A stretch of 32,000 nt of DNA from assembly GCA_041674405.1 (NCBI GenBank), contig JBAYVT010000004.1, positions 90,001 to 122,000 on the forward strand, given 5' to 3'. This DNA comes from Patescibacteria group bacterium. GTDB taxonomy: Bacteria > Patescibacteriota > UBA1384 > XYA2-FULL-43-10. This document shows, one piece after another, positions 6,132 through 31,479 of this stretch; positions within the stretch are counted from its first letter, which is position 1; each line of letters starts with the position of its first letter. The notes under the pieces are model-generated. The model had not been told where the DNA came from and searched no databases. It worked only from the letters and a program-made list of their open reading frames with translations. The position numbers and the translations under genes were made by a program.

Positions 6132-6175
6132 AACTTAACTAACTGATCAATTTTTATTAGGTTTAATCTGACATA

Positions 6176-6204: not shown

Positions 6205-6269
6205 ATTTCTGCTCGTAAAACAAACAGCGCATTTAAGGCTTGTAATGAAATATTTTCTGAGCAAGTATA

Positions 6270-7007: not shown

Positions 7008-8274
7008 TCTTAAATATTGCTAGCAGCGCTTCTTTCTTCGTGTAAACATAATACCCCATAAGCAAAGCGAATAAAACACCATTCATCAAGATAAATGTAC
7101 GAATTACCGCAAGAATGCTTGGGTGCCAATACGAAACCATGACAATCTGAGCTACAAGCACGATGAAATAAAGAATTAAGAAAAAGAAGTTTTTGATGAC
7201 CATATAGTAATTTGCCATAAGATTAACCATGGAATAGAACAAAACAAACAAACCAACCTCGGGAAGAAGCGTGTATGCAGAAACATAATCAGGCCCATAT
7301 AAAATTGATACCACCTTGCCTGGCATTATCATATAAATGGCAAGCACAGCAAATGCCCCGATTAGCGTGATTATGATCGAAAAAAGAAAGATCTGATAAT
7401 GTTTGTCACCTTTGACTTTTCGCTCTGATACCATTGGGAACATGACGCTCGCAATCGGTGCTGTTACATAAAGAATAATCTTGGCAACCGTCGAGATGGC
7501 AGCGTATAAGCCAGCGCTTTGCGGATCAAAATAATGTTTAACCAGAATAATATCGATATTGAGCGAAGCAACAAGAAATAAAGACGCAATCAGTGTTGGC
7601 CAAGTGTAGGATATTATTTCCTTTTTATCGAATTTAAAAGAGTGCCCATCATGGAATTTTATTTTATTAAACATTCGCTTTATCGGCAAAAACGAAATGG
7701 AATATGCAATTATGGTGGCTAGTACTATGGCACTGACCGCTCCGTTTAATTTTAAACCTGCCATCACCAGTGCTAAGCCCAATCCAAGCCGGAGGGCCAT
7801 TTCTAAGATGTTGATTGAAGCCAGGCTTCTAAATTTTTGGAGGCCCTGAAAATATCCTTTGTTAATTACAATAAGCAGAGAGAATATTACTCCTGATAAC
7901 ACAATTGAAATTGGCATGAGTGAATTGATAGAAAAGAAATTCGCGATAGGCTTTAGAAACAAAAGGCAAACCAAAAATATTCCAACACCGATCAAAAGTA
8001 GATATTTTGTGAGAAACAAAAACAATTTTTTTAATGCATCAAAATATCGTTCGTTGAATAATTCTCCGGAGTATCTCATCGAGATGGTCAAAATTGCGCC
8101 GCTAGCTACGGCAATAATAGTTTGCAATGACATTAGGGCTGTCATCTCGCCATATTCCGTCGGACCCAAAAGCCGCCCCATCATCATATTGAACAGGTAG
8201 GAAAATAAACTGGCAATCAATGTCCCGATAAAGACAATTGAACTGCTTTTAAGTAATTTTTTGGCTTCATTCAT
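6991..8274 (-). CDS. Wzx-like polysaccharide flippase (MOP superfamily)
   Basis: 427 aa with about 12 hydrophobic spans. The N-terminal 'SSIVFIGTLIASLFSYLFNMMMGRLLGPTEYGE' is typical of polysaccharide biosynthesis/flippase proteins. Confidence 0.8.
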   Translation of the reverse strand: MNEAKKLLKSSSIVFIGTLIASLFSYLFNMMMGRLLGPTEYGEMTALMSLQTIIAVASGAILTISMRYSGELFNERYFDALKKLFLFLTKYLLLIGVGIFLVCLLFLKPIANFFSINSLMPISIVLSGVIFSLLIVINKGYFQGLQKFRSLASINILEMALRLGLGLALVMAGLKLNGAVSAIVLATIIAYSISFLPIKRMFNKIKFHDGHSFKFDKKEIISYTWPTLIASLFLVASLNIDIILVKHYFDPQSAGLYAAISTVAKIILYVTAPIASVMFPMVSERKVKGDKHYQIFLFSIIITLIGAFAVLAIYMIMPGKVVSILYGPDYVSAYTLLPEVGLFVLFYSMVNLMANYYMVIKNFFFLILYFIVLVAQIVMVSYWHPSILAVIRTFILMNGVLFALLMGYYVYTKKEALLAIFKSENES

Positions 8275-8399
8275 ACGGGTTAAACTATAGCAGGTTGATT
8301 AAGCTTCGAAAAGGCTGTTTCAAAATTAGCAAATTATCTGATAACATCGAAATGCTTGACCAACTTTTTGCAATCTCAATTTCAATAATCGAATTATAA

Positions 8400-9425
8400 A
8401 TGCCAGATAAAGAAATAATTAAAACCAGTGTTTTTGCCAGGATCGGATTTTTAGGCAACCCCTCAGATGGATTCGGCGGCAAAACAATTAGCCTGCCCTT
8501 AAAAAATTTTCAAGCCGAGACATTGGTCTGGCAATCACCAACTTTCAAATTGCTCTCAAACAGCGAAGATCAGGACGAATATGAGCATGTCGGCGACATG
8601 GCTCGATATGTCAGGGCAAATGGCTATTATGGTGGAATCAGGCTTGTCAAGGCGGCGATTGTCAGCCTTAAGAAATATTGCGAGCAACATTCGATAGAAT
8701 TTCCTGGTGGCAATTTTACTATCAGTTATCGTTCAAATATTCCGCGCCAGAGCGGTCTTGCCGGTTCGAGTGCAATCATTGTCTCGACTATCAAATCGGT
8801 AATGAAATTCTACAAACTCCCCGAAGCCAGTTTGCCACCGGAAATCCTTGCTAACATTGCAATTGCCGCTGAAACTGAGGAACTGGGCATTACTGCTGGG
8901 CTTCAAGACCGAGTGGTCCAATCTTTTGATGCCCCGGTCTATATGGATTTTGGTCCGGCAGCATTTAAAAGGCATGGAGGGATTTTTGGTGAATACAAAA
9001 AAATAAATCCGAACTTATTTCCTGAAATGTACATAGCCTGGAACGACAAACCTTCTGAATCGGGCAAAATTCACTCGGATGTTAAATCTCGCTTCCTGGA
9101 TGGTGATCAAAAAGTAGTTAATGCAATGGCAAGATTTGCCGAAATTGCCGAATCTGGGATGAGCGCCTTGCTTAAACGCGACCATGCCAAGCTTTGTGAT
9201 CTTGCAGACCAGAATTTTGATCTGCGTAGAAAAATCTACGGTGATTCTGTAATTGGGGCCGACAATCTAGCGATGATTAAATTGGCTAGAAAATTTGGCG
9301 CTGCCGCCAAGTTCCCAGGTTCAGGCGGGGCGATCATCATTATTCCACGAAATAAAGGACAGGCTGATATAATTTTAGAAGAGTTTGCGCGAAGAAAATA
9401 TAACATTGAAAGAGTAGTCGTATGA
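8400..9425 (+). CDS. GHMP-family sugar-1-kinase, glucuronokinase-like
   Basis: GHMP motif II-like 'NIPRQSGLAGSSA' and motif III-like 'FPGSGGA'. 'ARIGFLGNPSDGFGG', 'GYYGGIRL', 'ELGITAGLQDRV' and 'PSESGKIHS' match my recollection of the plant glucuronokinase subfamily. The stop overlaps the galU start (ATGA). Confidence 0.8.
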   Translation: MPDKEIIKTSVFARIGFLGNPSDGFGGKTISLPLKNFQAETLVWQSPTFKLLSNSEDQDEYEHVGDMARYVRANGYYGGIRLVKAAIVSLKKYCEQHSIEFPGGNFTISYRSNIPRQSGLAGSSAIIVSTIKSVMKFYKLPEASLPPEILANIAIAAETEELGITAGLQDRVVQSFDAPVYMDFGPAAFKRHGGIFGEYKKINPNLFPEMYIAWNDKPSESGKIHSDVKSRFLDGDQKVVNAMARFAEIAESGMSALLKRDHAKLCDLADQNFDLRRKIYGDSVIGADNLAMIKLARKFGAAAKFPGSGGAIIIIPRNKGQADIILEEFARRKYNIERVVV

Positions 9426-10309
9426 TGAGAAAGATAACAAAAGCGGTCATTCCGGCGGCTGGTCTTGGTACCCGTTTTTTGCCGGCCACCATTGCGCAAC
9501 CGAAAGAAATGCTGACAATTGTTGACAAGCCAGTGATTCAATTTGTGGTCGAAGAAGCGGTCGAAAGCGGAATTAAAGATATCCTCATTATCACCGGCCG
9601 AAGCAAGAGAGCAATCGAGGACCATTTCGATCCATCGTATGAGCTCGAAGAAATGCTTCAAAGGAAAAACAATGAAGAGCTTCTTTTGACACTTGATCGA
9701 ATTTCAAATCTCGCCAATATCCATTTTATTCGCCAAAGGCGCCAGAGAGGTCTAGCAGATGCAATATATCAAGCCAAAACTTTTATTGGCGACGAGCCAT
9801 TTGCCGTCCTCTTAGGGGATACAATCATTGATTCGAGTGATGAAAAAACCCACAATCTATCAAAAATGGCTTCGCTTTATGAAGAAACAGGGAAATCCGT
9901 AGTTGCTCTCGAGCGAGTTTCGAAGGCACAAATTTCGCGTTATGGAATAGCTGGCGGAAAAATGCTCGACAAACAGGTGATGGAGATTGACGAACTGGTC
10001 GAAAAGCCGGACCTGGTTGATGCTCCGTCGAATCTAGCGATCGCCTCACGCTATATTTTTGCAACTGGCATTTTTAGCCTGGTCGAGAAAACTAAACCCG
10101 GTGTCAATGGGGAGATTCAGATTACCGATAGTATGAAATTTCTCGCCGAAGCGGGAGAAATACTTGGTTATATCATCAGCGGCCGCCGGCATGACATCGG
10201 CAATAAGGTTGATTTCGTCAAAACAAATCTTGATTTTGCCTTAAAGCGCAAAGATACAAAAGCAGAGATCAAAAAATATATTAGAGAAATTTTGAAAGGT
10301 GAAAAATGA
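9422..10309 (+). CDS. galU: UTP--glucose-1-phosphate uridylyltransferase
   Basis: 'KAVIPAAGLGTRFLPATIAQPKEMLTIVDKPVIQFVVEEA' and 'LLGD' are canonical GalU motifs. ATGA overlaps at both ends. Confidence 0.9.
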   Translation: MMRKITKAVIPAAGLGTRFLPATIAQPKEMLTIVDKPVIQFVVEEAVESGIKDILIITGRSKRAIEDHFDPSYELEEMLQRKNNEELLLTLDRISNLANIHFIRQRRQRGLADAIYQAKTFIGDEPFAVLLGDTIIDSSDEKTHNLSKMASLYEETGKSVVALERVSKAQISRYGIAGGKMLDKQVMEIDELVEKPDLVDAPSNLAIASRYIFATGIFSLVEKTKPGVNGEIQITDSMKFLAEAGEILGYIISGRRHDIGNKVDFVKTNLDFALKRKDTKAEIKKYIREILKGEK

Positions 10310-13586: not shown

Positions 13587-14451
13587 ATCTCAAAATAAGT
13601 AGAACAGCAGCTATCAAAACAGCACATCCAGTCAACCTGATGATGTATGTTTTTGATGAATTTTTTTCGAGCCAGGTAGGGTAATATCTGGAGGTGATGC
13701 CAGTAATTAGTAGGGTGAAAAATGACCCGAACATTGCAAGGGCTTGTGAAACTGCCACATTCGTCAAAAATGCGATGAAAACCAATACTTGTGCGCTTAC
13801 GATAAATAAGTTGCTTAGGAAAAGTGGAAAAATCTGGATTGCGGTGACCCTGATTTCTTTTTTTGCTAGAAAATATGTTGGGCTCAAAAGAACTGCGACT
13901 CCCAATAAAGACCAGGCCTGAAAATTGAAAGGATCAAGCCCGGTATTGAGTGAAAGTTTCACGAAAATATCAGTTGCCGCATAAAGCAAAACAGCAAGGA
14001 GCATCAGTAAAATGTTTTTGTTGAAAATTGATCCCAGTCGTTGTTTGTCGTTGTAGGAAACAAGAATTCCACCAAGCACCGTCAAGGCAATTGAAAGATA
14101 GATCAGGACAGGGAATCTTTCGCCTAAAACAATAAATGACAGCAGCGTTACAAAAATGGTCTGTATGTTAAATAGCGATTGATAGACTGATACGTCGATG
14201 GAATATAAGGCTTTCCATGTCAGAAGCGTTGCAACCGCGGTGGTAGCAATATAGGCAAAATAAGGCCAACTTAGCGGATTCTGAATGTGCCCTGCCTTGG
14301 CCCAAAGAAACGGCAGAAAAATTAGTGCTGTCACATTCAACCAAAAAATCAAGGAATATAGATTCTTAATTTTGTACTTTGTTGTAATTTTGCCGGCAAT
14401 GCCGGAAAGCGAGTAGAAAAAAGCTGCTGTTAAGGACAGAAATATATACAT
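13576..14451 (-). CDS. EamA/DMT-family 10-TM transporter
   Basis: Two EamA-like halves, with 'FIVLGERF' and 'ALTVLGGILVSY'. The ATG at 14451 is preferred. The track ORF start at 14469 is a TTG, and tacaat there looks like a -10 box. Confidence 0.8.
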   Translation of the reverse strand: MYIFLSLTAAFFYSLSGIAGKITTKYKIKNLYSLIFWLNVTALIFLPFLWAKAGHIQNPLSWPYFAYIATTAVATLLTWKALYSIDVSVYQSLFNIQTIFVTLLSFIVLGERFPVLIYLSIALTVLGGILVSYNDKQRLGSIFNKNILLMLLAVLLYAATDIFVKLSLNTGLDPFNFQAWSLLGVAVLLSPTYFLAKKEIRVTAIQIFPLFLSNLFIVSAQVLVFIAFLTNVAVSQALAMFGSFFTLLITGITSRYYPTWLEKNSSKTYIIRLTGCAVLIAAVLLILRFAR

Positions 14452-14510
14452 AATGCGATTGTAGCACAAGAATTGTTAGTCCTCACCCAAAATAATTGTT
14501 TTTAAACGCA

Positions 14511-14542
14511 AGACCGCCGCCCACGTTGGGGCGGCGGCGGTC
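14511..14542 (-). terminator. GC-rich hairpin downstream of the GC-rich minus-strand gene
   Basis: agaccgccgccc / acgtt / ggggcggcggcggtct (imperfect, with one extra gcg), ending 20 nt from the stop at 14563. Confidence 0.5.
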
Positions 14543-14562
14543 TGCTTTTGGGAATCCGGGCG

Positions 14563-15369
14563 CTACGCATAGCGCTCGACCATCATCTTCATGTTGGCGA
14601 GGAACCACGCCATGTGGTCCTGCACGGCCGAGGGCGTGCCCAGCTTGGGCTTGTACTCGGCAACGAAGTTGATCTCGGCCGGCCGGTTGGCCGCCGAGAG
14701 AAGGTTCTCCACGATCGTGTGTGACCCGCTGTCCGTCACCGATTTCACGTGCACGGCGGCGACGTACGGCGCGAGGACCTTCACGGCCTCGTGTCGCTCG
14801 GTGCGAGTGGCGCCCAAGACAGAGCTGTCTTCGGCGGCGTTGCGATCGGCGCGAAGGAGATGCTCTGTGTCGATGACCAGCCTGCATCCCTCGTCCCGGC
14901 AGTACCGAGCAATCGTGTTGGCGGCCAGTCGATCATCAGGGTTCACCTCGTAGAGGCCGTTGGCCGCAAGGTGGTGGCTGATGTTCTCGCCGGGAAGAAG
15001 TGCCTCCACCTTTCGGCACTCGGCGATCTTCGGGAAGAACGCCCAGTCGATCGGTGTGGAAGGCATGCCCTCACCGCCGATCTGGTGGCGGAGACCCTGG
15101 AGAAGCCCGTTCACCGGGTTCCAGGCGCCTTCGTGGTACTTGACCGGCAGCGGCCAGTTCTCCCTTCCGGTTACCCCACGAAGGGGGAGAACCTGCAGGA
15201 ATTCGTAGCCAGCCTTCTGGGCCCACTTGGCCGCCATCATCGGCGAGCCATGCGCCCAGAGTGCCGTCCTCATAGCATACGGCAACAGAGACGCGATCGA
15301 AATACCGTAACCGAACACATTGGGAGTCCGTCGCAAGCTAATCACCCGTTTCTTGCCCCCATGGGACAT
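14563..15369 (-). CDS. GC-rich hypothetical protein, possibly a xylose-isomerase-like TIM-barrel (sugar-phosphate isomerase/epimerase-like) fold
   Basis: The long ORF in about 63% GC DNA carries several shadow ORFs. The ATG at 15369 is preferred, though the track ORF extends to a GTG at 15417. 'LYEVNP', 'VIDTEHLL', 'AAVHVKS' and 'FVAEYKP' loosely resemble the E/D-H/H/E metal-ligand pattern of that fold. The functional call is weak. Confidence 0.6.
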   Translation of the reverse strand: MSHGGKKRVISLRRTPNVFGYGISIASLLPYAMRTALWAHGSPMMAAKWAQKAGYEFLQVLPLRGVTGRENWPLPVKYHEGAWNPVNGLLQGLRHQIGGEGMPSTPIDWAFFPKIAECRKVEALLPGENISHHLAANGLYEVNPDDRLAANTIARYCRDEGCRLVIDTEHLLRADRNAAEDSSVLGATRTERHEAVKVLAPYVAAVHVKSVTDSGSHTIVENLLSAANRPAEINFVAEYKPKLGTPSAVQDHMAWFLANMKMMVERYA

Positions 15370-15444
15370 ATTTGATATTCTTGGGTCATGCCCCACGGCA
15401 CCGTAACAATATAACACAAATCACTAATAAAGTCAAGGACATTT

Positions 15445-17004
15445 ATGCCAGAACTTAAGCGTGTGAGCAAGCCTACCAAGGATCAAAAAGCTAAAAATGC
15501 CAAATTTAAGATCTCAATCTCGTATCCGCCTCTTCCTAGTGAGAAAGGCATCCCTCTTCTTACCCAGAATCGCCAATTTCAATGGTTCAACAACCCAACG
15601 TATATCTATCCGATGGTGCCTTCGTATGCAGCCTCACTTCTGGCCGATCAAGGCTATGACGTGCTCTGGGACGATGCCATTGCCGAGGAGCTCACGCCGG
15701 AATCCTGGCTTCTTAGAATCAAGAAATCCAATCCCAACCTGATAGTGTTTGAATCTAAAACCCCGGTAATTAAGCGACACTGGAAACTTATTGAAGTTAT
15801 GAAAAAAGAGCTTCCCAAGGCGACTATCGCCCTGATCGGCGATCATGTGACTGCGATGCCGGAAGAATCGATGAAAAACTCGAAGGTTGATTATGTTCTT
15901 ACGGGCGGAGATTATGATTTTCTGGCATTAAACCTAGCGAATCATCTAAATCATGGTGAGAAACTCGAGGCAGGGATTTGGTACCGTGAAGGGAAAACCA
16001 TTAAAAATACCGGGCATTTTGAGCTTAATCATGATCTTGACGATCTTCCGATGATCGATCGTGATCTCACCAAATGGCAGCTGTACGCTTACAAGAATGG
16101 TAATTACAAAAGAACACCAGGCACATACACATATGCTGCACGTGACTGCTGGTGGGGCAAATGTGCATTTTGTTCCTGGACGACTCTCTATCCGGGTAAG
16201 GATTATCGCAAACATTCGGCCAGGAGGATGCTCGACGAGATCGGCATCTTGATTGAGAAATATCATGTCAAGGAGATCATGGATGATTCGGGCTCTTTTC
16301 CGATCGGCACATGGCTAACGGAGTTCTGCAATGGCATGATCGAGCGTGGCTACAACAAGAAAATCCGTCTTGATATAAATATGAGGCTAAAGGGGCTTAA
16401 ACAAGAAGATTACGATCTTATGGGCAAGGCCGGGATCAGGTTTATCCTGTACGGACTTGAGTCGGCAAACCAGAATACGCTTGATCGAATCCAGAAAAAT
16501 TTGAAGGTAGAGGAAATCGAAAAAGGCGTTAGAATGGCGAAAAAGGGTGGACTGGAGCCTCATATCACTACCATGATGGGTTATCCGTGGGAAACGCGTG
16601 AAGACGCCGAACGAACTGTGGCTCTTGCGAGACATCTATTCAATAAAGGTTATGTTGACACTCTGCAAGCCACTATAGTGATCCCGTATCCAGGCACGCC
16701 ACTCTATCGCGAATGCAAGGAAAACGGCTGGTTGGCGACTGAGGATTGGGATAATTTCGATCAGCGCATGGCGGTGATGAAATCACCCTTGACCGAGAAA
16801 GATATCAAAGAACTGACCCAAGAGCTATATAAGTCATTCATGACTCCCCGGTTTGTCATGCGAAAGATTGCTTCGGTGCGAAGCTGGTCTGATGTTACTT
16901 TCCTTTTCCGTGCTGCTGGCAAGGTAATCGGCCACCTCATTGACTTCTCTCCCAAGAATAAACAAAATTGCGAGTGCGAGGAAAAGGCAGAACACGAAGC
17001 ATAG
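15445..17004 (+). CDS. B12-binding-domain radical SAM enzyme (class B-like)
   Basis: 519 aa. The N-terminal Rossmann-like part is 'LIVFESKTPV...IALIGDHVTAMPEE...VDYVLTGGDYDF'. The Fe-S motif 'RDCWWGKCAFCSW' is CX4CX2C, verified in the DNA at 16147-16173. 'FILYGLESANQNTLDRIQK' is the radical SAM core. Intermediate GC. Confidence 0.85.
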   Translation: MPELKRVSKPTKDQKAKNAKFKISISYPPLPSEKGIPLLTQNRQFQWFNNPTYIYPMVPSYAASLLADQGYDVLWDDAIAEELTPESWLLRIKKSNPNLIVFESKTPVIKRHWKLIEVMKKELPKATIALIGDHVTAMPEESMKNSKVDYVLTGGDYDFLALNLANHLNHGEKLEAGIWYREGKTIKNTGHFELNHDLDDLPMIDRDLTKWQLYAYKNGNYKRTPGTYTYAARDCWWGKCAFCSWTTLYPGKDYRKHSARRMLDEIGILIEKYHVKEIMDDSGSFPIGTWLTEFCNGMIERGYNKKIRLDINMRLKGLKQEDYDLMGKAGIRFILYGLESANQNTLDRIQKNLKVEEIEKGVRMAKKGGLEPHITTMMGYPWETREDAERTVALARHLFNKGYVDTLQATIVIPYPGTPLYRECKENGWLATEDWDNFDQRMAVMKSPLTEKDIKELTQELYKSFMTPRFVMRKIASVRSWSDVTFLFRAAGKVIGHLIDFSPKNKQNCECEEKAEHEA

Positions 17005-21341: not shown

Positions 21342-21724
21342 AAAAAATCAGACATAATATTCTTGATGGTTGGGCTAATCTTTCCGTTTTTATTCGCAAT
21401 AATCTCGTTGGCTTTATTGTATTGATTGCGTTTATGTTTGTTTTTCTTATGCTTAAAAATTACTTTCCGGTACTACAAAATTACATGCGCATAAGATTGA
21501 TTTATGCCTATGTAGGGATGTTAGCTATCTTGATTCTAAATCTGGAAACGAAATTTTTTCTGAAGCTCTCTATTGCATTTTTAGGGCTTGTTGTGCTTGC
21601 CCTGATATTCAATAATACAAACGCAGCCGATCTTATCTCTACTTACTTTCTAATTACCTTTGCACTAGGAATTGTCGCTTCACCAATTCTCCTTGGCCTA
21701 AAAAATAAATGGCTAGGGGTTTAG
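21338..21724 (+). CDS. Small hypothetical 4-TM membrane protein
   Basis: 128 aa. The GTG start overlaps the GT2 stop (GTGA). Four hydrophobic spans and no recognizable family motif. Confidence 0.55.
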   Translation: MKKIRHNILDGWANLSVFIRNNLVGFIVLIAFMFVFLMLKNYFPVLQNYMRIRLIYAYVGMLAILILNLETKFFLKLSIAFLGLVVLALIFNNTNAADLISTYFLITFALGIVASPILLGLKNKWLGV

Positions 21725-23827
21725 TTTTCTTACTTTATTTAAATAGAAAATTGTTCCCAATAATGCCAGAGCCGAAATTGCGATAGACACATATTGAGTT
21801 CTCTGCAGTTTATATTCAATTGTTACGGTATCAACATTTTTGGATATTGCCCACGAATTGGCAAATCCGTTGTATAGATGATGATCTATCTCCTCTCTGT
21901 CCGAAGTTTTTGCTTTCCAGTTTCCATTAAAATTCTGGTTTAAAATGAGCGTGAAAGGCGCAACTAAGCCTTTCGTATTAATCTTAAATTCCACGGGATT
22001 AATTTCTTCAAAAGAGATCGGAACCAAGCTTCCGTCTTTTTCTACTGAAATAATTTGGCTGTTAGGGTCTGTACCCTTGATCTTATAAATCAAAAGATCG
22101 CCGAATGTTTGTACCAGCTCGAGCTTACCGGAGTTCCTGATGGAATCCGAAATCATCTGGGCATTTTTTTGCACCGGCTCAGCCGTTCTATTGTAGGTGG
22201 AATAATTGTAATCAACCGACTTATCGTATAAAACATATTTAATATTGAACTTATTGGCATATTCAATAAGTTTTTCAGGGTGATCGATGGTATCCATATA
22301 CATTTCATCAATCAATTGGTCTGCTTTGGTTGTCGGGAATGAAGTATATTTAATTGTTCTATTGTTGATAAGCACAAGAGCCGGGTTATCACCGGCGAAA
22401 AATCCGTGTTCCCATTTATGGCCGACAGCATAACCGGTTGGCGGAATTAGCATCACTCTCTCATCTTGGCTGGTGTTAGAACTGAACCAAGAATTGGCAT
22501 CATTCCAATAGCCCGGAATGCTCACGTAATTAGACCGCATAAGCCCCGTATTGGTGTTCCAGATAATTTTTCCAGTAAGAAGTGGAAATGCCACCACCAA
22601 CACCAAACAAAGGCCTAAAGGAGGGATCAGAAAGGCCAGAAGAGGTGCTTTGCGCCTGAAATAGTCAAATAGATATGCAATGCTACAGCCGAAAAGAATG
22701 CTGATAGAAAACAAGTGGATCGGAGTAAATTTGGCCCAGGGTTCGCGGTATATCCAAAGAATTTTGATATGAGTATATAAATAATTGTACATTTCCCCGA
22801 AAGGAGGAGTGGATCCTTTGGCCAAGAACAAGCCGACGAGAGCCATTATTGCAAAAAAACGCACATGTTTATTTTTGTAGTTTAAAAGCAGGGCTAAAAG
22901 TGCGATTGCAGTAATGCCATAGCTTAAAATTAAGAAGAGAGGTTGGTCGAAATTGGTCCAGTATGAGAAATAAAACGACCCGTTATGGTTGTCATACCAT
23001 CCCCATGATCCCAAGAAGCGGAAAAAATTATGGAACTGCCCCGTATCAATTTTTTGAAACGTAAACACACCGCTCACTTGGTTGAACTGAAGGCTATTTA
23101 TGACAAATGGCAGAAACCACCAGACGTTCAGAAGGACCCATATGCCGGCAAAAATTAAAGCATATAATACCGACTGGCGGATTTTTTTTGGGTTGATAGC
23201 GATGAAAAAAATTAAGTAAGCCAAAAGCATGATGGGAATCACGCTTGTGACAGCGAGATTCACATTGGCAGAAATTGATATTAATAATACAAAATTTGCA
23301 TAAATCGCATATTTAACCCTGTTTTTGAGATCATATTGTTCAAGTCCCAGCTTAAAAAACAGAAGAACCAACGGCAAAGCAATCATCATCAGTTTTGTAT
23401 TTGTCTGATAGGCCCCTATCTGAACGACATATAGATTAAATGTGTACAAAAGCCCGGCGAAAAATCCTGCCATTCTTGAATATTTAAAATCTTTAAAAAT
23501 ATTTCTGGCAAACAGGTACATTGCTATACCGGGCATGCCAAAAAGAATGATGATCCAAATCTTTTCAATAAATATCATTGAAAATCCCACCTTCGAGAGA
23601 ATCAACCAGAATGGGAGAAGCGGAAAAAGATATGGCAAATAAATATTCGGCCCACCCATATTAAATGCCTTTGCGTTCCAAGAATAGAAATAATCAGGCA
23701 AGAAGCTTAAGGGGCGGATAATCCAAGACTCGTCACCCCCAGCAATCATAAGGTCTTTTTTGAACCAAAAAAGAGGCAGAAGGCTTAAAACCACTAATAG
23801 TATTAGATATTTATCTAGTTTTTTCAT
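21713..23827 (-). CDS. Large polytopic GT-C-like membrane protein (paralog 1 of 3)
   Basis: About 13 N-terminal TM spans with an acidic first loop 'IAGGDESW', then a soluble domain. The C-terminus is 'NGNWKAK...NGFANSWAI...TIEYKLQ' plus a final TM anchor. ATG at 23827 is preferred over the TTG at 23863. Confidence 0.75.
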   Translation of the reverse strand: MKKLDKYLILLVVLSLLPLFWFKKDLMIAGGDESWIIRPLSFLPDYFYSWNAKAFNMGGPNIYLPYLFPLLPFWLILSKVGFSMIFIEKIWIIILFGMPGIAMYLFARNIFKDFKYSRMAGFFAGLLYTFNLYVVQIGAYQTNTKLMMIALPLVLLFFKLGLEQYDLKNRVKYAIYANFVLLISISANVNLAVTSVIPIMLLAYLIFFIAINPKKIRQSVLYALIFAGIWVLLNVWWFLPFVINSLQFNQVSGVFTFQKIDTGQFHNFFRFLGSWGWYDNHNGSFYFSYWTNFDQPLFLILSYGITAIALLALLLNYKNKHVRFFAIMALVGLFLAKGSTPPFGEMYNYLYTHIKILWIYREPWAKFTPIHLFSISILFGCSIAYLFDYFRRKAPLLAFLIPPLGLCLVLVVAFPLLTGKIIWNTNTGLMRSNYVSIPGYWNDANSWFSSNTSQDERVMLIPPTGYAVGHKWEHGFFAGDNPALVLINNRTIKYTSFPTTKADQLIDEMYMDTIDHPEKLIEYANKFNIKYVLYDKSVDYNYSTYNRTAEPVQKNAQMISDSIRNSGKLELVQTFGDLLIYKIKGTDPNSQIISVEKDGSLVPISFEEINPVEFKINTKGLVAPFTLILNQNFNGNWKAKTSDREEIDHHLYNGFANSWAISKNVDTVTIEYKLQRTQYVSIAISALALLGTIFYLNKVRKLNP

Positions 23828-26045
23828 AGAAAAATTTGAAATAAATGAATGAACCAGCGGCAATTAATATGCTGCAAATTGCTAAAATGCTGAATACTTT
23901 CTGTGCCGAATATTCAATTGTCATTGTATAATCCCCCTGTTCGCGAACATACCAGCCATTGGCATAACCATTTGCAAGGTAATGTTGGCCTTCATCAATT
24001 TTCTGGGTTTTTCCATTTTTATTGATCGTGACTTTCCAATTTTTATTATAACTTGCAAGGAAGGTCAGTATATAAGGCGAATTTGCGTTCTTAACTTGAA
24101 CGGAATATTTAGTAGGGCTAATTTTTGAAAAGATTGTTTCGGGCGATTTTCCAGAAATATTTAAATCTGCAAGCGAAGACGGCATATTAAAATCTTTGGC
24201 TTCTGGCGTGAAAAATATTACAGGTTGTTTTGTAAAATCAATATTACCCAAGTAACCATCAAGGCTCTCGGTTTGCCCGCCTTGGCGATCGATATTAATA
24301 TCACTCATATGAATGTCAGTAGTAGTGTAGATTTGAGGTAGGTTTGTGCCTGACTTATAAAAATCCAATCCTCCGATTTTTCTTTCCAGCCCAATATTTT
24401 CTTGGGTGGACAGGTTTTTTTCAATTGTTTCTTTTGAATTGATTGTGCGGAGAAACGACTCAGAATCACCGCGCACCATGAGTGTATCTACGCCCATAAG
24501 AGCAAGGATGCGATCGAGATGGACACCAAGACCGGCGTGATTAATTTCGTCATAAGCGATCGTCATCATATCAACAGAATGAGAAAAGGCCAGCCTGTTT
24601 TCAGGATAATCTCGCACAATAGGTTTGTTAAATAAATAACGGGTGAAATCAGGCATATCATAATATGCCCAAGTGAATTTTGACAGCCATTCTTCCTGGG
24701 GTAATATTAATATTCTGCCTTCTCCCTGATTTTTGAGCCAATCGGCGGCTTCATAATATTCCTGAGGAATTGTTACTGGTTTAATGCTTTGTTTCATATC
24801 TCCTGTGATCATCGGATATTCGCCAATGAAAACCAATGCCAACATTAAGGAGACAAAGATTATTTTTGCATAAGATTTCTTAAAAAATGCAAGAATTTCG
24901 TCCGCGGCAAAGGAAAAAAGAACGCAGTAAGAAAAAATAGTCCAGATAGCAAACCTATATGGGTTTCTGAACATTTGCAGAATGGGAATCTTCATCATAA
25001 AAAACTGGATAGGCTTACCAAAAACACTATTGCGCCCAGCAGCAAGAACGAAAGAGACAATCAGCAGGATAAGTAAAAACCAAATCATTTTTTTGCGTTC
25101 TGGGCTGGTATTTCTTCCGATAATTCTTATGATTGAATAAATCAAAGTGATCGAAACTAAAATTGCGATTGCACAGAGGGGCCCGGAGGTTGGTGCCGGA
25201 ACACCCCTAACTAACAAGAGGTTAATCGGAGTTGCTGCTTGGGATATTAGCTTCCAAGTAAATAACCATAGGCGATTAATGTCCCCGATTTGCGAGCTTC
25301 CGCCCAGTCCAAGAACTGCCGGAACAAGCCACCAGATATTTAAAACAACCACATAAACAATTGAAAGAATCGTAAATTTGGCAACATTCTTGCGGTTTTT
25401 GCCCGTTGCTATCTCGTACAGTAACCAGAAATACAAAGGCAGCATATGCACCACAAATGAAGGCATGTTGGTAATTGCCATAAAAACGCTGACTATCCCA
25501 ATATACAAAGCGTAAATGGGCTTTTTGTTCTCCACGCCCAATTTTCCCAGTAGAAATACGAGTGGAATGAAAGCATAAGAAAAAATTGCTATATGCTCTC
25601 CCTGAGAGACATAGAGCCCCATAATCGGGTTAAAAATATAAAACAACCCAGCCAATAATGATGCGAAATGATGTTTGCCGCGCAAGATATTTCTTGTAAG
25701 AAGGTACATCGAAAGCCCAGCTAAAAATATTCCGGCAACATACCAAATTCTCTCAATCGCACCGATTGATAAACCAAGAGTATTAAGGCTGGCTAGGATT
25801 CCATAAAAAGGAATTTGGGACAAAAATGCAGATGAGATATCGTAACCCATCGTTACTTTGTCGTACCATACGGATAGGGAAGAGTGCAGGTTTGAGAGAG
25901 GGGCCAAGGGAAAATCCGCATCGGTTCCGTCAATAATTCCCAAGATCCCTGTCTTCCAAATGGGTAAGATTGCAGAAAACAAAAGAATCGGCAGATCGAT
26001 GAGCAAAGGGTTTATGCGCGTAAACCAATTTTTGAGTCTATTCAT
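23811..26045 (-). CDS. Large polytopic GT-C-like membrane protein (paralog 2 of 3)
   Basis: 744 aa. First loop 'IIDGTDADFP', many TM spans, and C-terminus 'NKNWKVT...NGYANGWYV...TIEYSAQ' plus a final TM anchor. Confidence 0.75.
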   Translation of the reverse strand: MNRLKNWFTRINPLLIDLPILLFSAILPIWKTGILGIIDGTDADFPLAPLSNLHSSLSVWYDKVTMGYDISSAFLSQIPFYGILASLNTLGLSIGAIERIWYVAGIFLAGLSMYLLTRNILRGKHHFASLLAGLFYIFNPIMGLYVSQGEHIAIFSYAFIPLVFLLGKLGVENKKPIYALYIGIVSVFMAITNMPSFVVHMLPLYFWLLYEIATGKNRKNVAKFTILSIVYVVVLNIWWLVPAVLGLGGSSQIGDINRLWLFTWKLISQAATPINLLLVRGVPAPTSGPLCAIAILVSITLIYSIIRIIGRNTSPERKKMIWFLLILLIVSFVLAAGRNSVFGKPIQFFMMKIPILQMFRNPYRFAIWTIFSYCVLFSFAADEILAFFKKSYAKIIFVSLMLALVFIGEYPMITGDMKQSIKPVTIPQEYYEAADWLKNQGEGRILILPQEEWLSKFTWAYYDMPDFTRYLFNKPIVRDYPENRLAFSHSVDMMTIAYDEINHAGLGVHLDRILALMGVDTLMVRGDSESFLRTINSKETIEKNLSTQENIGLERKIGGLDFYKSGTNLPQIYTTTDIHMSDINIDRQGGQTESLDGYLGNIDFTKQPVIFFTPEAKDFNMPSSLADLNISGKSPETIFSKISPTKYSVQVKNANSPYILTFLASYNKNWKVTINKNGKTQKIDEGQHYLANGYANGWYVREQGDYTMTIEYSAQKVFSILAICSILIAAGSFIYFKFFYEKTR

Positions 26046-26145: not shown

Positions 26146-27258
26146 ATGAAAAAAAATTGGATCAAAGAGATAGACTATTTAAGAGCTGTCGCCATACTAG
26201 CTGTAATTTTAATTCATGCAACAGACCCCTGGGATTCTATTACTCCACTTACGTCTGTCGGTATCATTGCCCTGACACTAAATGAACTATCAATTTTTGG
26301 GGTTTCCTTCTTCTTTGTAATAAGCGGCATGGTTTTATTCCGGAGCATGCAAAAAAAAGATGCGATCATTCCATTCTACCTGCGGCGCATCCAGTCAATT
26401 CTGATTCCATATCTTTTTTTCACGATAATTTATGAGATTTTCAAAAAATTCTATTTAGGCATACCCTTGTCGCAGGCCACAGTTTTTCATGATTTGTATA
26501 CGGGCCAAGGTTATTTCCATTTCTGGTTCCTTGTCGTGCTATTTTATTATTATCTAATTTATCCTTTTCTTTACCGAATTTTTATAAAGTTTAAGCAGTT
26601 AAACCCCTTTTTAAACGGGATTGTCTTTATTGTTTTTCTGGTTCTTCCTTTTTTGTGGCAAATAACATCAAGTAAATTTGGATTAGCAAAGATCGATGGA
26701 CAAGTTAGAATCACTGAGTTTTTCCGCTATTTACCATTTCTGTATGGCGGTATCGCGATCTCAGCAAATTATGAAAGAATAAAACAAAATTTGCACCTTA
26801 CAAAAACTTTAATATTGGCATCAGTTTCTTTGGTTGCCATTTTTACATTGATATTTTCAATCTATCTTGCGGTGAATCACCCTGGAATTTTTGTTCATAT
26901 TCAGGGTATCTATCACTATTACAGCCTCATATTTCTCCCATTTTATGTGTTTCCTTTATTTTTTATTCTTATTAAATTTTTTTCTTCAGTAAATATAAAT
27001 CAATCCGTTTTGAATCTACTTAAAAAGATCGGTGATTATTCTTTGGGTATATATTTGATTCACATAATGTATAATATTCTTATATTTGGTGAGCTGATAT
27101 ACAAATATCTCAATCTGACATGGAATAATATCCTGGCTTATATTTTACTTTTTATCGGTTCCTCTTTAGCGAGCATTTTAACCATCTGGATAATCTCTAA
27201 AATACCGTATTCCGGATGGATATTAGGAAATAGGGTACGTAATGCAAAAACAATCTAG
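26146..27258 (+). CDS. Acyltransferase family 3 (OafA/YrhL-like) membrane O-acyltransferase
   Basis: 370 aa with about 10 TM spans. The N-terminal 'IDYLRAVAILAVILIHA' and 'FFFVISG' are hallmarks of acyltransferase_3. Confidence 0.85.
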   Translation: MKKNWIKEIDYLRAVAILAVILIHATDPWDSITPLTSVGIIALTLNELSIFGVSFFFVISGMVLFRSMQKKDAIIPFYLRRIQSILIPYLFFTIIYEIFKKFYLGIPLSQATVFHDLYTGQGYFHFWFLVVLFYYYLIYPFLYRIFIKFKQLNPFLNGIVFIVFLVLPFLWQITSSKFGLAKIDGQVRITEFFRYLPFLYGGIAISANYERIKQNLHLTKTLILASVSLVAIFTLIFSIYLAVNHPGIFVHIQGIYHYYSLIFLPFYVFPLFFILIKFFSSVNINQSVLNLLKKIGDYSLGIYLIHIMYNILIFGELIYKYLNLTWNNILAYILLFIGSSLASILTIWIISKIPYSGWILGNRVRNAKTI

Positions 27259-29416
27259 AGTACGAATAATGCTTCTGCCGCTTTCTGTGCTTGCTTTTAT
27301 GTTGCTGCTTTTTTGGCCGTACCGACATGGTATTGGCAACTATTGGGATTGGACTGTCCCATATTTCAATTTGAATTTTTGGGATGCTATTCTTGGCAAG
27401 CTGTTGATATGGCAAGGCATTACATTTGGCCAGTCGCTGCCATACAATTCTGGCATGTATTGGCAACTTGTACTGAGCGCAATATATTCAATACGGATTC
27501 CGACCGAATATCTTGTCTACCTCGGCCTTTCGTTTTTTGGTTTTTTTACGATCTGGATCGTTTGGAAGACATGCAAACCCAAGAAGGAAAAGATCAATTT
27601 TCTCTATTTGCTCATCGCAATGGCCTCATTCCTTAATCCGGCCATTTACTACAAGCTATTGGCCGGCCATATGAACTATTATTTTTCTTTTCTTTTGTTT
27701 GTTGTTTTAATTTACTATCTTCTTAAAAAATTTAAACCGACATTAAAACATTATCTTGTGTTGGCAATTATTCTGGCATTTGTCGGAGCCCAGATTCAAT
27801 TCTTTCTTTTTGCCATTCTGGCCCTGCTGGTTTATTTTATTGTTTATCGCGAGAGATTCCGTTGGAAGTTCGCCATATGGACTGCTGTGATTGCTTTTTT
27901 CATAAACTTGCCATGGATGGTGAATATTTTTTTTGGCGTGAATAATGTAAGCCAAATTTCCGGTATCGCTGGGAGTGAATCTTTTTCTGCAGCAATGTTT
28001 ACGAACCCTGCTAGAATTTTTGCGATGGTTTTTGCCCCCGCCACAAACATTCAATACGCTTTCCCCAAAATTGCATTTGGTTTTTTTGCCGTATTTAGTT
28101 TGGTTTTAGTATCATCAATTATTATTTTCTTCGCAAAAAGAAAATATGTTGGCCAAAGGGGGAAAGACGCGATTTTCATCATCATTCTTTGGGCAATTTT
28201 TGTTTTTCTCTGTACTGGATTATTTAACTATTTGAAAATTCCATACGTGCAGGATTTGTATCCGCTTTTACGCGAGTCTGGCCATTTTGCCCCACTCATT
28301 CTTCTAACCGGTTTGCTTGCCTTGGCGTTTATTTGGGATGAATTGAGGCCTGCTAAATTGATAAAAAGCTTGCTTATTGTGTATATGGCGCTGTTTATTA
28401 TTATTAATTTTTATACTTTTTATCGCTATCTTCCAAAGGTCAATTATGCCTTGGCGCGTGAGAGTTTTTCCCAAACCAAAACTTATCTGGATGATGAGGT
28501 TGGCGCATTTAACGTTGCTGAATACCCATTTTGGAATCAGTACGGATTTGTGGGCCAAGAAATTGATGTTGTGCAAGAAAAACAGATCAACCAGAGCGGC
28601 TGGGATAGTTTTATCCTCTATTCCGGGCAAGATTTCTTGTCGAATTATCATGATGGTGGAAAAAATATCAATGATTCTTTTCAATACGCCATTTTAAAAA
28701 ATAATGCCCTGGAGAAACTTCGAAGCCATAATATTAAATATCTTCTTGATTTTTCCTCCATTTATAAGAGCAATTATGGTTTTTATACCTCGCCTGATAG
28801 ATATGAGAGCAACCCAAGCTTACTCAATAATCCCAATTTTGTTCCCTCGCTTCTGGCTGAAAACCAGCAGGAAATTAATAAAGTTTCGGAAAACGTTTAT
28901 GAAATCAAAAATAGTCTTCCTAGAATTTATGGCGACGGGGTAACATTCAAACGTGTCAACTCCACAGAATACAAAATTCAAATCAAAAATCTCAAAGATT
29001 CAACACCCCTGTATTTTTTGGATAATTACAATAATGGATGGAAGATATATTTAAGTGAAAGCAAAGGTTCTCTTTGTTCAAATCCAACTAATTTTTCCGC
29101 CCAGAAAACGAGTGAATGCCAGTCAAAAGATCAAATTGATTTAACTGCCCTCGGTTACCTTCGATCGCCTTCGTTTGCAAACAGCACGCACAAAATGATT
29201 TCCGGATATGCAAATAGTTGGAATTTCAGCATCTCTGAATTGAAAAATAATCCCGATTATAAAAAATATGCCACAGAAAATTCTGATGGCACTATCGATC
29301 TAACACTTACTTTGTTGTTTTTGCCACAGGTTTACTACTATGTTGGAATGGCCGTAAGCCTAATGGCAATTCTAGCCGTGGTTTTTATGGTAGTTTTTCT
29401 CAAGCCCCAGGATTAG
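27242..29416 (+). CDS. Large polytopic GT-C-like membrane protein (paralog 3 of 3)
   Basis: 724 aa. First loop 'GNYWDWTVP', many TM spans, and C-terminus 'NNGWKIY...SGYANSWNF' plus a final TM anchor. It overlaps the acyltransferase gene by 17 nt. Confidence 0.75.
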   Translation: MQKQSRVRIMLLPLSVLAFMLLLFWPYRHGIGNYWDWTVPYFNLNFWDAILGKLLIWQGITFGQSLPYNSGMYWQLVLSAIYSIRIPTEYLVYLGLSFFGFFTIWIVWKTCKPKKEKINFLYLLIAMASFLNPAIYYKLLAGHMNYYFSFLLFVVLIYYLLKKFKPTLKHYLVLAIILAFVGAQIQFFLFAILALLVYFIVYRERFRWKFAIWTAVIAFFINLPWMVNIFFGVNNVSQISGIAGSESFSAAMFTNPARIFAMVFAPATNIQYAFPKIAFGFFAVFSLVLVSSIIIFFAKRKYVGQRGKDAIFIIILWAIFVFLCTGLFNYLKIPYVQDLYPLLRESGHFAPLILLTGLLALAFIWDELRPAKLIKSLLIVYMALFIIINFYTFYRYLPKVNYALARESFSQTKTYLDDEVGAFNVAEYPFWNQYGFVGQEIDVVQEKQINQSGWDSFILYSGQDFLSNYHDGGKNINDSFQYAILKNNALEKLRSHNIKYLLDFSSIYKSNYGFYTSPDRYESNPSLLNNPNFVPSLLAENQQEINKVSENVYEIKNSLPRIYGDGVTFKRVNSTEYKIQIKNLKDSTPLYFLDNYNNGWKIYLSESKGSLCSNPTNFSAQKTSECQSKDQIDLTALGYLRSPSFANSTHKMISGYANSWNFSISELKNNPDYKKYATENSDGTIDLTLTLLFLPQVYYYVGMAVSLMAILAVVFMVVFLKPQD

Positions 29417-30650
29417 TAGCTTTGGCGATGGAATTTAGTGTTTTTGGATAGATATAGAATTTTGTCTTGGCTTTGTTCTTTTTGCTTGCATAATTTATTG
29501 CGTCATTGATATCGGAGAAGCACTTAAACGGGGTATTTTCAAAAAGTTTCTGGTTGCCCGAAACAAAGACAATATCGTATTTACGAAGATGTTTTAAAAC
29601 CATGTATGTTCTGTGCCCACCCGCTTTGAAGCCCACCTTTTTGATATGGGATAAAAATTCCGCTGGATCCTTGATGGACCTAAGGTCTTTGTAAAACCGA
29701 ATTTCGCCAATTCCGTTCCCGGCACCCTCTGATAGCTCCGCAGCTATAATCAAACAACCGCCGGTTTTTATAATCGGATTTTCAACGTCGAGTAAATAAT
29801 TTATTACCCTAGAGGCCTGATACAGGTTTGAATCCTTGGGAAACCCCAAACCGCAAATGGCCGCATCGGCCACACCATCTACTGATAATATAAAATTCTC
29901 TTTTACAAACTTGATCCCATCCTTGTAAACCTTTTCAAGCTGGCCGGAAAAGCACTTTAGAAGATTTCCCTGGGCATCATTCACCAAATTAATTGAGTAA
30001 TCGATTTTTATTGGTTTGATAATTTCCCAAAGAGTTTGATGAAAAGGATTCGACTCGGTCTCGCAAAGTTTTGTGTTCTCATCTCCAAGAAATTTAAGGC
30101 TATGGGTTGCATTTATTGTCGGTTCTCCGGCGCAACCTATCGCGATTGTTTTTGGGCCGCCGCTAAAGCCGGCATATAGATGAGGCTCAATTACCCCTAT
30201 CGTCATAATAAAATCATGGTTTAACAACAATTTGTTTAAAACAATTGGGACCCCCAAGGATGTAACACCCAGATTTTTGTGTGTTTTTTTGTCTTGTGTA
30301 TGAGAAATAATCCGATATCTCTCTGCAATTTCTTGCCCGAACATCTCGTTTATTTGCTCTTTGTCCTGGGCTTTATGCAGGCCCGTTGCAATCAATATCT
30401 CTACTTCACAACCAGTTTTTTCAAACATCGGCAAAACTGCTTCCAAAATTTCATTAAGATGGGCCTTGCGCGTAATGTCAGGCACTACAATCAGTGCTTT
30501 TTTCCTGCCCTGGATTATATTTTCCAAATCGGTAAAATCGGTTTTTGTATCCGCGATTTTTGATGGGCCCAGAGGCTTGATTATGCCAAGGAGATTTTTG
30601 CCTGAAAGGTTTACAGAAACTTGTTTTTTACCATAAGAAATATAGTGCAT
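29400..30650 (-). CDS. LarA-family (DUF2088) nickel-pincer-cofactor-dependent racemase/epimerase homolog
   Basis: 416 aa. 'VVPDITRKAH', 'LIATGLHKAQ', 'GVIEPHLYAGFSGGPKT', 'INATHS' and 'NLYQASR' align by eye with the LarA motifs DHTRP, ATGFHR, ESHFFAGFSGGRK, ANHS and NIYQAVK. Confidence 0.8.
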   Translation of the reverse strand: MHYISYGKKQVSVNLSGKNLLGIIKPLGPSKIADTKTDFTDLENIIQGRKKALIVVPDITRKAHLNEILEAVLPMFEKTGCEVEILIATGLHKAQDKEQINEMFGQEIAERYRIISHTQDKKTHKNLGVTSLGVPIVLNKLLLNHDFIMTIGVIEPHLYAGFSGGPKTIAIGCAGEPTINATHSLKFLGDENTKLCETESNPFHQTLWEIIKPIKIDYSINLVNDAQGNLLKCFSGQLEKVYKDGIKFVKENFILSVDGVADAAICGLGFPKDSNLYQASRVINYLLDVENPIIKTGGCLIIAAELSEGAGNGIGEIRFYKDLRSIKDPAEFLSHIKKVGFKAGGHRTYMVLKHLRKYDIVFVSGNQKLFENTPFKCFSDINDAINYASKKNKAKTKFYIYPKTLNSIAKATNPGA

Positions 30651-30672
30651 TTATAACTCTAGTGTTAAATAT

Positions 30673-31479
30673 TTACAGGGTTTTGAATAATTTATATGGC
30701 CAACGGATGATGCGCATTATCAGTGTGGCCAGCCTTCCATTGTGTTTATACCAAAAATACGTTTGTGATCTGTAATAATATTTCTTGCGGGCGCTGCTAG
30801 TTTTTATGCTTCTTCCTTCTAAGTGAATAATCTTGGCAGAATTCAAAACTGCGTTTTGGTACCCAACGTCCGAGAGGCGTTTGCAAAGATCATCATCTTC
30901 TAAATACATAAATATGTTTCTGTCGAAACCACCTACGTCCTCAAATTTCTTACGTTCAAGCATCATGGCGGCACCAACTACGATATCAGCAGTAAAGTAC
31001 TCTTTTGAAAAATCAATCTTATGGTCGTTGTAACGGCGGATAGTTACGGAACCGAGATTTTGAAATGATGCAAAAAAGTTTTTTTGAATTATTCCGTCCT
31101 CATGATATAGGAGCGGCGATAGGGCACCAATTTTGGGATGTTTATCTAGAAAAGAAACCATTTTTGATGGAGAGTCATCCGTCAGAAGAGTGTCCGAGTT
31201 CAAAAACCACAGATATTTTCCTTTAGCATCTTTTGCGCCTAAGTTATTCCCCTTACCAAAACCAAGATTGGTTTTTGAAAAAATGACCTTGATTTTTTCA
31301 GGAGGCAGTAATTTGCGGAGTTTTACTGAATCTATCTTTGACTTGTCGCCGGATCCGTTGTCGACAACTATTACCTCGTAATTTAGCCGGACATATTTTG
31401 CAATTGTTCGCAAAGAATCCTGTACCAGATCAGGCGTGTTGTAATTTATCATGACAATTGAGAGTTCCGGCGTTTTCAT
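30673..31479 (-). CDS. GT2 glycosyltransferase (rhamnosyltransferase-like)
   Basis: 'LSIVMINYNT', 'VIVVDNGSGD', 'FLNSDTLL', 'MYLEDDDLCKRL'. Confidence 0.9.
   Translation of the reverse strand: MKTPELSIVMINYNTPDLVQDSLRTIAKYVRLNYEVIVVDNGSGDKSKIDSVKLRKLLPPEKIKVIFSKTNLGFGKGNNLGAKDAKGKYLWFLNSDTLLTDDSPSKMVSFLDKHPKIGALSPLLYHEDGIIQKNFFASFQNLGSVTIRRYNDHKIDFSKEYFTADIVVGAAMMLERKKFEDVGGFDRNIFMYLEDDDLCKRLSDVGYQNAVLNSAKIIHLEGRSIKTSSARKKYYYRSQTYFWYKHNGRLATLIMRIIRWPYKLFKTL

Follow-up and report, generated by a model that had tools for sequence, protein, structure and literature searches.

A LarA homologue of an uncharacterised clade at the end of a glycosyltransferase operon in a Patescibacteria bacterium

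The window analysed here is a stretch of 32,000 nucleotides from a Patescibacteria group bacterium (contig JBAYVT010000004.1, positions 90,001 to 122,000, assembly GCA_041674405.1). Near its end it carries, on the minus strand at 29400..30650, a full-length gene with an ATG start that encodes a 416-amino-acid homologue of the nickel-dependent lactate racemase LarA, referred to below as LarAH. The protein is an intact member of the LarA superfamily (DUF2088 / IPR048068), recognised by its domains, its matches to known structures and its predicted fold, and its alignments assign it to an uncharacterised clade of LarA homologues with an invariant pocket. In the few Patescibacteria-type lineages where it is known, the gene lies among genes for an envelope glycan. 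The explanation that best joins these observations, which we consider moderately probable, is that LarAH is a LarA-type racemase of a small anionic 2-hydroxy acid, likeliest a dicarboxylate, that has been kept in a Wzx-GT2-GT2 operon (GT2, family 2 glycosyltransferase).

Both domains of the family are recognised by Pfam above their gathering scores. Lar_N (PF09861, E = 1.7e-42) covers residues 6-192 (30075..30635) and LarA_C (PF21113, 3.6e-9) covers residues 268-404 (29439..29849). A weak match to DUF362, a related fold family (2.9e-6), is subsumed by the much stronger match to Lar_N and was set aside. Among sequences in the PDB, the best match is to Mar2 (6D6Z, 3.7e-38), and the lactate racemases 2YJG and 5HUQ match at ~1e-36. 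An AlphaFold (AF2) model built from 81 homologues has a mean predicted local distance difference test score of 93.6 and a predicted template modelling (TM) score of 0.91. All 19 significant matches of this model in a Foldseek search of the PDB belong to the LarA family; for the LarA and Mar2 structures among them (2YJG, 5HUQ, 9EIA and 6D6Z) the TM-scores range from 0.76 to 0.88.

The active-site residues were mapped by HMMER alignments to 5HUQ and 6D6Z and by MAFFT, using the numbering of LarA1 from Lactiplantibacillus plantarum. R61 (codon 30468-30470) corresponds to R75, the catalytic residues H92 (30375-30377) and H157 (30180-30182) to H108 and H174, the cofactor-tethering K167 (30150-30152) to K184, the nickel ligand H183 (30102-30104) to H200, and Y277/Q278 (29817-29822) to Y294/Q295. 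In the family, K184 forms the thioamide tether of the cofactor, H200 ligates the nickel and R75 binds the cofactor (PMC11770544). An earlier note on this DNA had located these positions by eye in the motifs DITRK (R75), TGLHK (H108), EPHLY (H174), SGGPK (K184), ATHS (H200) and NLYQ (Y294/Q295), and the alignments place every one of them identically. Its assignment of the DITRK arginine to carboxylate binding has to be given up, as R75 is now classed as cofactor-binding (PMC11770544), and its account of the pocket overlooked that K298 is replaced by arginine in LarAH. The eight catalytic and cofactor residues are invariant in four Patescibacteria-type sequences (47-59% mutual identity) and in alignments of 81-104 clade members; both catalytic histidines are invariant in 81. 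Such invariance across diverged lineages argues that LarAH is under purifying selection as an active enzyme, and that the cofactor is available to it. By homology to LarA, the protein would be equipped to bind the nickel-pincer nucleotide (NPN) and to carry out racemisation by proton-coupled hydride transfer.

The clade is set apart by its pocket. The LarA1 positions F175, F176, W358 and T359 are predictive of function (Urdiain-Arraiza et al. 2024, PMC11770544). Lactate racemases carry F175-F176-W358-(T/E/Q)359, gluconate epimerases (GntE) carry E-V-A-H, and 2-hydroxyglutarate racemases carry Y-F-H/Q-T; malate racemases show x-x-H/Q-K, in which the lysine is proposed to hold the second carboxylate (PMC11770544). 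LarAH has the pair L158-Y159, within Lar_N, at F175-F176, H346-R347 (29610-29615) at W358-T359, where malate racemases have H/Q-K, and R281 (29808-29810) in place of K298. The resulting signature, L175-Y176 / R298 / H(Q)358-R359, is present in all 102 aligned relatives (35-56% identity), with one single-position exception. The HLYAG motif of the clade is absent from the whole set of 354 LarA homologues in Desguin et al. 2020.

Scores against the NCBIfam models all lie below their cut-offs. The two malate racemase models are the highest (LarAH6, NF052593, 284 bits against 500; LarAH5, NF052595, 247 against 462), followed by LarA itself (NF033504, Ni_dep_LarA, 231 against 460), LarAH10 (199 against 540) and the hexonate epimerase model (NF052594, 67 against 500, over the N-terminal half only). 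Over 81 clade members the LarAH6 model reaches a best E-value of 7.6e-111, an estimated ~370 bits, which is still under its cut-off. In BLAST comparisons with eleven of the groups of Desguin 2020 (Groups 2, 5 and 13-23 lie outside this sample, so that 'closest' means closest among these eleven), Group 25 is at the top with 191 bits, the Group 6 malate racemases reach 177 and LarA1 comes seventh. The identical protein is named 'nickel-dependent lactate racemase' by NCBI. This name is an over-call, and 'LarA-family 2-hydroxyacid racemase' of an uncharacterised clade would describe it better.

Comparison with the best-studied relatives shows where the likeness ends. LarA1 (PDB 5HUQ and 6C1W) shares the two-domain fold with LarAH (Foldseek TM 0.79-0.86), and D72, R75, H108, H174, K184, H200, Y294 and Q295 are common to both proteins, so that the same mechanism, with a lysine-tethered NPN, is expected. 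However, the two are only ~27% identical, F175/F176/K298/W358/T359 of LarA1 are L/Y/R/H/R in LarAH, and no lar operon surrounds the gene. Neither the pocket nor the model score is that of a lactate racemase. Mar2 (LarAH6 of Thermoanaerobacterium thermosaccharolyticum, PDB 6D6Z and 7S91) is the top PDB sequence match, and like the LarAH5 and LarAH6 malate racemases in general it shares with LarAH a histidine and a cationic residue at the H/Q-K position. H346 fits the malate racemase pattern directly, whereas R347 is cationic but an arginine, a difference that is fixed throughout the clade. Relative to Mar2, LarAH has arginine for lysine at both 359 and 298, and positions 175/176 are L-Y where Mar2 has Y-K.

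Group 25 (haloarchaeal proteins of 'unknown function' in Desguin 2020, e.g. Htur_2912) is 33% identical to LarAH and resembles it in the arginine at K298, the tyrosine at 176 and the Q/H-R pair of the C-terminal helix. It differs in having glutamine where LarAH has leucine at 175, is archaeal, and allows no transfer of function. The 2-hydroxyglutarate racemases (Groups 7a and 11; LarAH7 of Deferribacter desulfuricans and LarAH32 of Geobacter metallireducens) act on an anionic dicarboxylic 2-hydroxy acid, and dehydrogenases of the 2-hydroxyglutarate type (YdiJ-like and LhgO-like) are among the neighbours of the LarAH clade in other phyla. Their pocket is Y-F-H/Q-T as opposed to L-Y-H-R, and BLAST scores to their representatives are 108-112 bits (LarAH7, 112). 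The gluconate and hexonate epimerases are more distant: E-V-A-H is absent from LarAH, and the GntE2 structure 4NAR matches weakly (E = 0.0046, TM 0.66).

Relatives of LarAH outside Patescibacteria occur in Omnitrophota, Planctomycetia and other metagenome-assembled genomes, and the genes beside them provide a further indication of the substrate. A GlcD-like FAD-dependent D-2-hydroxyacid dehydrogenase overlaps the start of the LarAH gene or lies 62 nt upstream of it in L009, L010, L011, L097 and L098. A 946-amino-acid fusion of GlcD and GlpC, which scores 425 bits on the model of the D-2-hydroxyglutarate dehydrogenase YdiJ, is found 3' of LarAH in L015-L017, and an LhgO-like L-2-hydroxyglutarate oxidase (253 bits against a cut-off of 299) occupies this side in L018 and L019. 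A class II aldolase adjoins the gene in L012 and L014. Sugar genes were never seen beside relatives with the same pocket in the loci surveyed outside Patescibacteria. A racemase beside a stereospecific dehydrogenase is the classic arrangement for oxidising both enantiomers of a hydroxy acid, and a cationic pocket fits an anionic side chain; together these features point to a 2-hydroxy-dicarboxylate. Based on these observations, we propose with moderate confidence that LarAH acts on a small anionic 2-hydroxy acid, likeliest a dicarboxylate like 2-hydroxyglutarate or malate, and not on a sugar acid. AmmeMemoRadiSam radical-SAM genes also recur near LarAH, in L014 and L015.

In the source contig the operon runs in the order TPR, FG-GAP, Wzx, GT2 (316 amino acids), GT2 (268 amino acids) and LarAH, which is the last gene. 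The 316-amino-acid GT2 leaves the window at its end, so that only its 3' part is included (31500..>32000, minus strand). The 268-amino-acid GT2 (30673..31479, minus strand) ends in a TAA stop that is followed by a spacer of 22 nt (30651..30672) and the ATG of LarAH. The final three intergenic gaps of the operon are all 15-22 nt. No minus-strand terminator-like site is present in the 22-nt gap, and LarAH is therefore likely to be co-transcribed with the upstream GT2. At its other end the gene meets a convergent plus-strand gene for a polytopic membrane protein of 724 amino acids (27242..29416), with an overlap of 17 nt. The TGA stop of LarAH (complement of 29400-29402) lies within this gene, whose own TAG is at 29414-29416. 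The reading frame, spacer and overlap described in the earlier note are all correct, as are the two co-oriented GT2 genes and the terminal position of LarAH.

The closest relatives of LarAH (P0001) are P0002, P0003 and P0004, with identities of 55%, 56% and 49%. P0001, P0002 and P0003 group together in all 40 bootstraps of a neighbour-joining tree, and P0004 joins them exclusively in 23 of 40. Both the Wzx and the 268-amino-acid GT2 of the window have orthologues in the loci of P0002 and P0003, at 53-61% and 59-60% identity respectively. The P0002 locus (L003) also contains the 724-amino-acid membrane protein at the same position (45%), an Acyl_transf_3 gene and both GT-C_AftD proteins. In the P0004 locus the Wzx orthologue lies 6 kb upstream, and a different GT2, a DUF2304 gene and a family 4 glycosyltransferase (GT4) gene follow directly downstream. 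The gene thus remains in a glycan locus despite rearrangements, which include an S-adenosylmethionine synthetase gene inserted in L003, an extra GT2 in L006 and other partners in L008. The linkage of a LarA homologue to GT2 genes, which the earlier note described for one contig and for which it suggested a synteny survey, is thus shared by three more lineages, with LarAH identities of 47-59%.

Placement with Wzx, GT2 and GT-C genes of an envelope glycan is seen only in the four known Patescibacteria-type lineages. Outside this clade, none of ~170 loci of relatives, drawn from GTDB representatives and metagenomes of the Joint Genome Institute (JGI), has a homologue of GT2, Wzx, GT-C or Acyl_transf_3 within 3 kb. 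This survey used BLAST with Patescibacteria seed proteins at E <=1e-6, a procedure by which very divergent glycosyltransferases may be missed. The association of LarAH with glycan genes is real and specific to the Patescibacteria-type clade. The gene is also very rare in Patescibacteria. None of the 119 relatives found among 185,579 GTDB r232 species representatives, a collection without the present genome, is from this phylum (the best is from Omnitrophota, at 44%). The best 80 JGI loci, with identities of at most 44%, include no new member of the Patescibacteria-type clade. Among the papers searched, none joins lactate racemase or LarA with Patescibacteria (the candidate phyla radiation) or with glycosyltransferases. 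An association of 60% with COG1215 GT2 proteins is seen in Group 8 of Desguin 2020, where it is undiscussed, and the pocket of this group differs (F-L...K).

Two further loci contain other neighbours. In L008 an energy-coupling factor transporter S component (PF07155/PF12822) and a DUF1893/TM1506 protein (1.5e-24) are encoded at 8645-9551 on the plus strand, co-directional with LarAH, and the last of these genes ends 18 nt before the 49% identical LarAH gene; a vitamin or cofactor uptake module may be linked to it. The second locus is L094, where P0086 (45% identity) groups with the clade in the neighbour-joining tree. There, at 5278-8322, the surrounding genes encode FtsH, a NUDIX hydrolase, a CCA-adding enzyme and LepA, with no glycosyltransferase, and the LarAH gene overlaps both the upstream NUDIX and the downstream CCA-adding enzyme genes.

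In the mechanism that we favour, the NPN would be tethered to K167 and ligated by H183, as expected from homology to LarA. Hydride would pass from C2 of the substrate to the cofactor, with H92 and H157 alternating as base and acid at the 2-hydroxyl group, and would then return to the 2-keto intermediate on its opposite face. The pocket is akin to that of the malate racemases, with arginine for lysine, and in other phyla the clade is found in operons with stereospecific FAD-dependent 2-hydroxyacid dehydrogenases. In the present Patescibacteria genome the gene would have been acquired once and long ago, with Omnitrophota-type sequences as the nearest outgroup, and would since have become fully ameliorated and been retained as the last gene of a Wzx-GT2-GT2 operon in a large envelope-glycan locus. 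The GC content of the gene (0.40) matches the contig mean (0.415), which fits an old acquisition; a recent horizontal transfer was rejected on this composition. No RNA genes or tRNAs that could mark an integration were found near LarAH. The cofactor genes larB, larC and larE would lie elsewhere in the genome, or the cofactor would come from outside the cell.

Several observations weigh against a racemase of malate or 2-hydroxyglutarate. Patescibacteria usually lack a tricarboxylic acid cycle, and the source of either compound is not obvious. The best malate racemase score (284 bits) is far under the cut-off of 500, and with the arginine that replaces the malate racemase lysine throughout the clade the substrate may differ entirely. 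The clade is biochemically uncharacterised, and the dicarboxylate is deduced from sequence and gene context. In all four Patescibacteria-type lineages the dehydrogenase partner is missing and glycan genes stand in its place, so the physiological role may have changed. GlcD-like neighbours are typical of true lactate racemases too, at 35% in Group 1 (Desguin 2020). Cofactor genes are also missing nearby: AIRC, DUF111 and PP-loop LarE-type genes are absent from 48 kb of the 158-kb contig. The Pfam families of LarB, LarC and LarE were found neither among the 27 open reading frames of at least 150 amino acids in the window nor among the called genes in the 16 kb of source contig that flank the window on its two sides (record 20961-68981). 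In Desguin 2020, the share of larA genes with a lar biosynthesis gene no more than three genes away is only 28-42% even for the best groups, which makes their absence here ordinary. The statement in the earlier note that larB, larC and larE are not nearby is thus true over 48 kb, but as a distinguishing feature it is unremarkable for the family.

The first alternative takes the operon position as functional. Here the racemase would provide a 2-hydroxy acid in its non-metabolic enantiomer, for instance as a D-malyl, D-lactyl, glyceroyl or 2-hydroxyglutaryl unit, to be built into, or to prime, the envelope glycan made by the Wzx, GT2, GT-C and acyltransferase genes. A direct role of LarAH in the glycan is suggested by its placement: co-directional with Wzx-GT2-GT2 and 22 nt past a GT2 with no terminator between, kept in all four lineages beside the orthologous Wzx and GT2 or beside other GT2 and GT4 genes, and without counterpart in the outside loci. 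Loss of the dehydrogenase partner of other phyla points the same way. Bacterial O-antigens can carry lactyl, malyl, glyceroyl and 2,4-dihydroxybutyryl groups as substituents. In L. plantarum, LarA supplies the cell wall with D-lactate (Goffin 2005, as cited in PMC11770544). However, the identities of the neighbouring genes track that of LarAH itself, which indicates that the four lineages are related, and their shared synteny may be simple inheritance, inseparable here from functional coupling. Housekeeping genes such as that for S-adenosylmethionine synthetase are interspersed in the same loci, and P0086 has no glycosyltransferase gene nearby although it groups with the clade. Among the proteins encoded in the window, none was recognised as able to activate a hydroxy acid or to ligate it, and an ATP-grasp gene is found only in L003. 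The adjacent GT2 proteins resemble polymer-building enzymes of the GT-A fold and are unlike those that use small acceptors; with PDB matches to TarS, chondroitin synthase and heparosan synthase, a role as glycosylators of small acids (of the GpgS or BshA type) was rejected for them. Overall, we regard a supply of glycan building blocks as a tentative possibility.

A true lactate racemase, interconverting L- and D-lactate in a fermenter from a position in the glycan locus that is incidental, is unlikely. Patescibacteria are typically lactate-producing fermenters. The NCBI name, the match to NF033504 and the top Foldseek matches, which are lactate racemase structures, are all in agreement with such an enzyme, and GlcD-like partners are common there (Desguin 2020). 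However, the score of 231 bits is half of the equivalog cut-off, the malate racemase models score higher, and Group 25 and then Group 6 are the closest of the sampled groups. In the pocket, F175-F176-W358 is replaced by L-Y-H, with arginine at 359 and 298.

The earlier note had suggested that LarAH might epimerise the carbon beside the carboxylate of a uronic or aldonic acid, for example an open-chain hexuronate that a 'glucuronokinase-like' enzyme then salvages. We find this idea, in which the GHMP kinase and GalU-type enzymes would carry the product on to a nucleotide sugar for the glycan, very improbable. The locus does make UDP-glucuronate, with a UDP-glucose 6-dehydrogenase (TIGR03026, 481 bits against a cut-off of 190) and a GalU (353 against 327). 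LarA-family gluconate 2-epimerases do exist (PMC7583248). However, LarAH lacks the GntE signature, with 67 of the 500 bits called for by the hexonate epimerase model and a weak match to 4NAR, and its pocket is identical to that of relatives whose neighbours are hydroxy-acid dehydrogenases and not sugar genes. The kinase and GalU are encoded 20 kb from LarAH and on the opposite strand (8400-10309, plus), where the GHMP-family kinase gene overlaps the start of galU by 4 nt. Only generic GHMP models match this kinase, and the label 'glucuronokinase-like' that it had been given goes further than the family models allow.

Also hardly credible is a non-functional remnant of horizontal transfer in a host unable to make NPN: the absence of larBCE from 48 kb and the rarity of the gene in Patescibacteria (none in GTDB r232 representatives, at most 44% identity in the best 80 JGI loci) would fit, yet the reading frame is intact and full length, the catalytic, cofactor and pocket residues are invariant over four lineages at 47-59% identity, and the gene has fully ameliorated in base composition.

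About half of the groups in the well-established LarA superfamily are without a known substrate. The type of enzyme encoded here is therefore already known; what is new is the uncharacterised clade and its clade-specific genomic setting. LarAH adds to the superfamily a clade whose pocket (L-Y / R / H-R) is clear-cut and strictly conserved, and for which the GlcD-, YdiJ- and LhgO-type neighbours give a short list of candidate substrates. An NPN-dependent enzyme that selection would be maintaining in a minimal genome raises the question of the cofactor source, and the conserved placement with surface-glycan genes suggests that the envelope of these uncultured episymbionts may contain a hydroxy-acid component. 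A more far-reaching scenario, which we consider doubtful, is that a small Patescibacteria clade captured the racemase from an Omnitrophota-like donor, shed the dehydrogenase and wired the enzyme into a Wzx-dependent glycan operon, where an unusual enantiomer of a hydroxy acid or hydroxy-diacid decorates or primes the surface polymer. If true, this would be the first link of the NPN cofactor to glycan assembly, and if the reduced genome also proved to be without larBCE, the cofactor or a precursor might come from the host cell.

The surrounding region is rich in genes of the same kind. The convergent 724-amino-acid protein has no direct match in Pfam or NCBIfam. In hhalign it aligns with the adjacent GT-C_AftD (PF11847) proteins over 605 columns (probability 98.7%, E = 4e-16), and it is predicted to be a divergent paralogue of these proteins, which are encoded at 21713-26045; the label 'GT-C' used for it earlier is acceptable on this basis. 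Directly upstream of Wzx-GT2-GT2-LarAH and past the end of the window, positions 1-6758 of L001, the source contig, contain three tandem genes for Wzy_C polymerase-like proteins as well as GT4, TPR and FG-GAP genes. Two flippases, including a window Wzx at 6991-8274, and three GT-C-like proteins are encoded in ~50 kb.

Other features of the window are more isolated. A protein of 206 amino acids (5511-6131, minus strand) has a Phd/YefM antitoxin domain at residues 11-62 only, with its other ~140 residues unmatched, and no toxin gene was recognised beside it. A B12-binding radical-SAM protein is encoded within the glycan locus (15445-17004, plus strand); its best model is that of the hopanoid-associated HpnJ, where a score of 182 bits against a cut-off of 578 shows that it is no HpnJ equivalog. 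Between this gene and that of an EamA transporter, positions 14400-15400 form an island with a GC content of 0.55-0.64 in a contig of ~0.41. The island contains an open reading frame without a Pfam match (14563..15417, minus strand, 284 amino acids) and several other, overlapping ones of high GC, and it may represent a recent foreign insertion.

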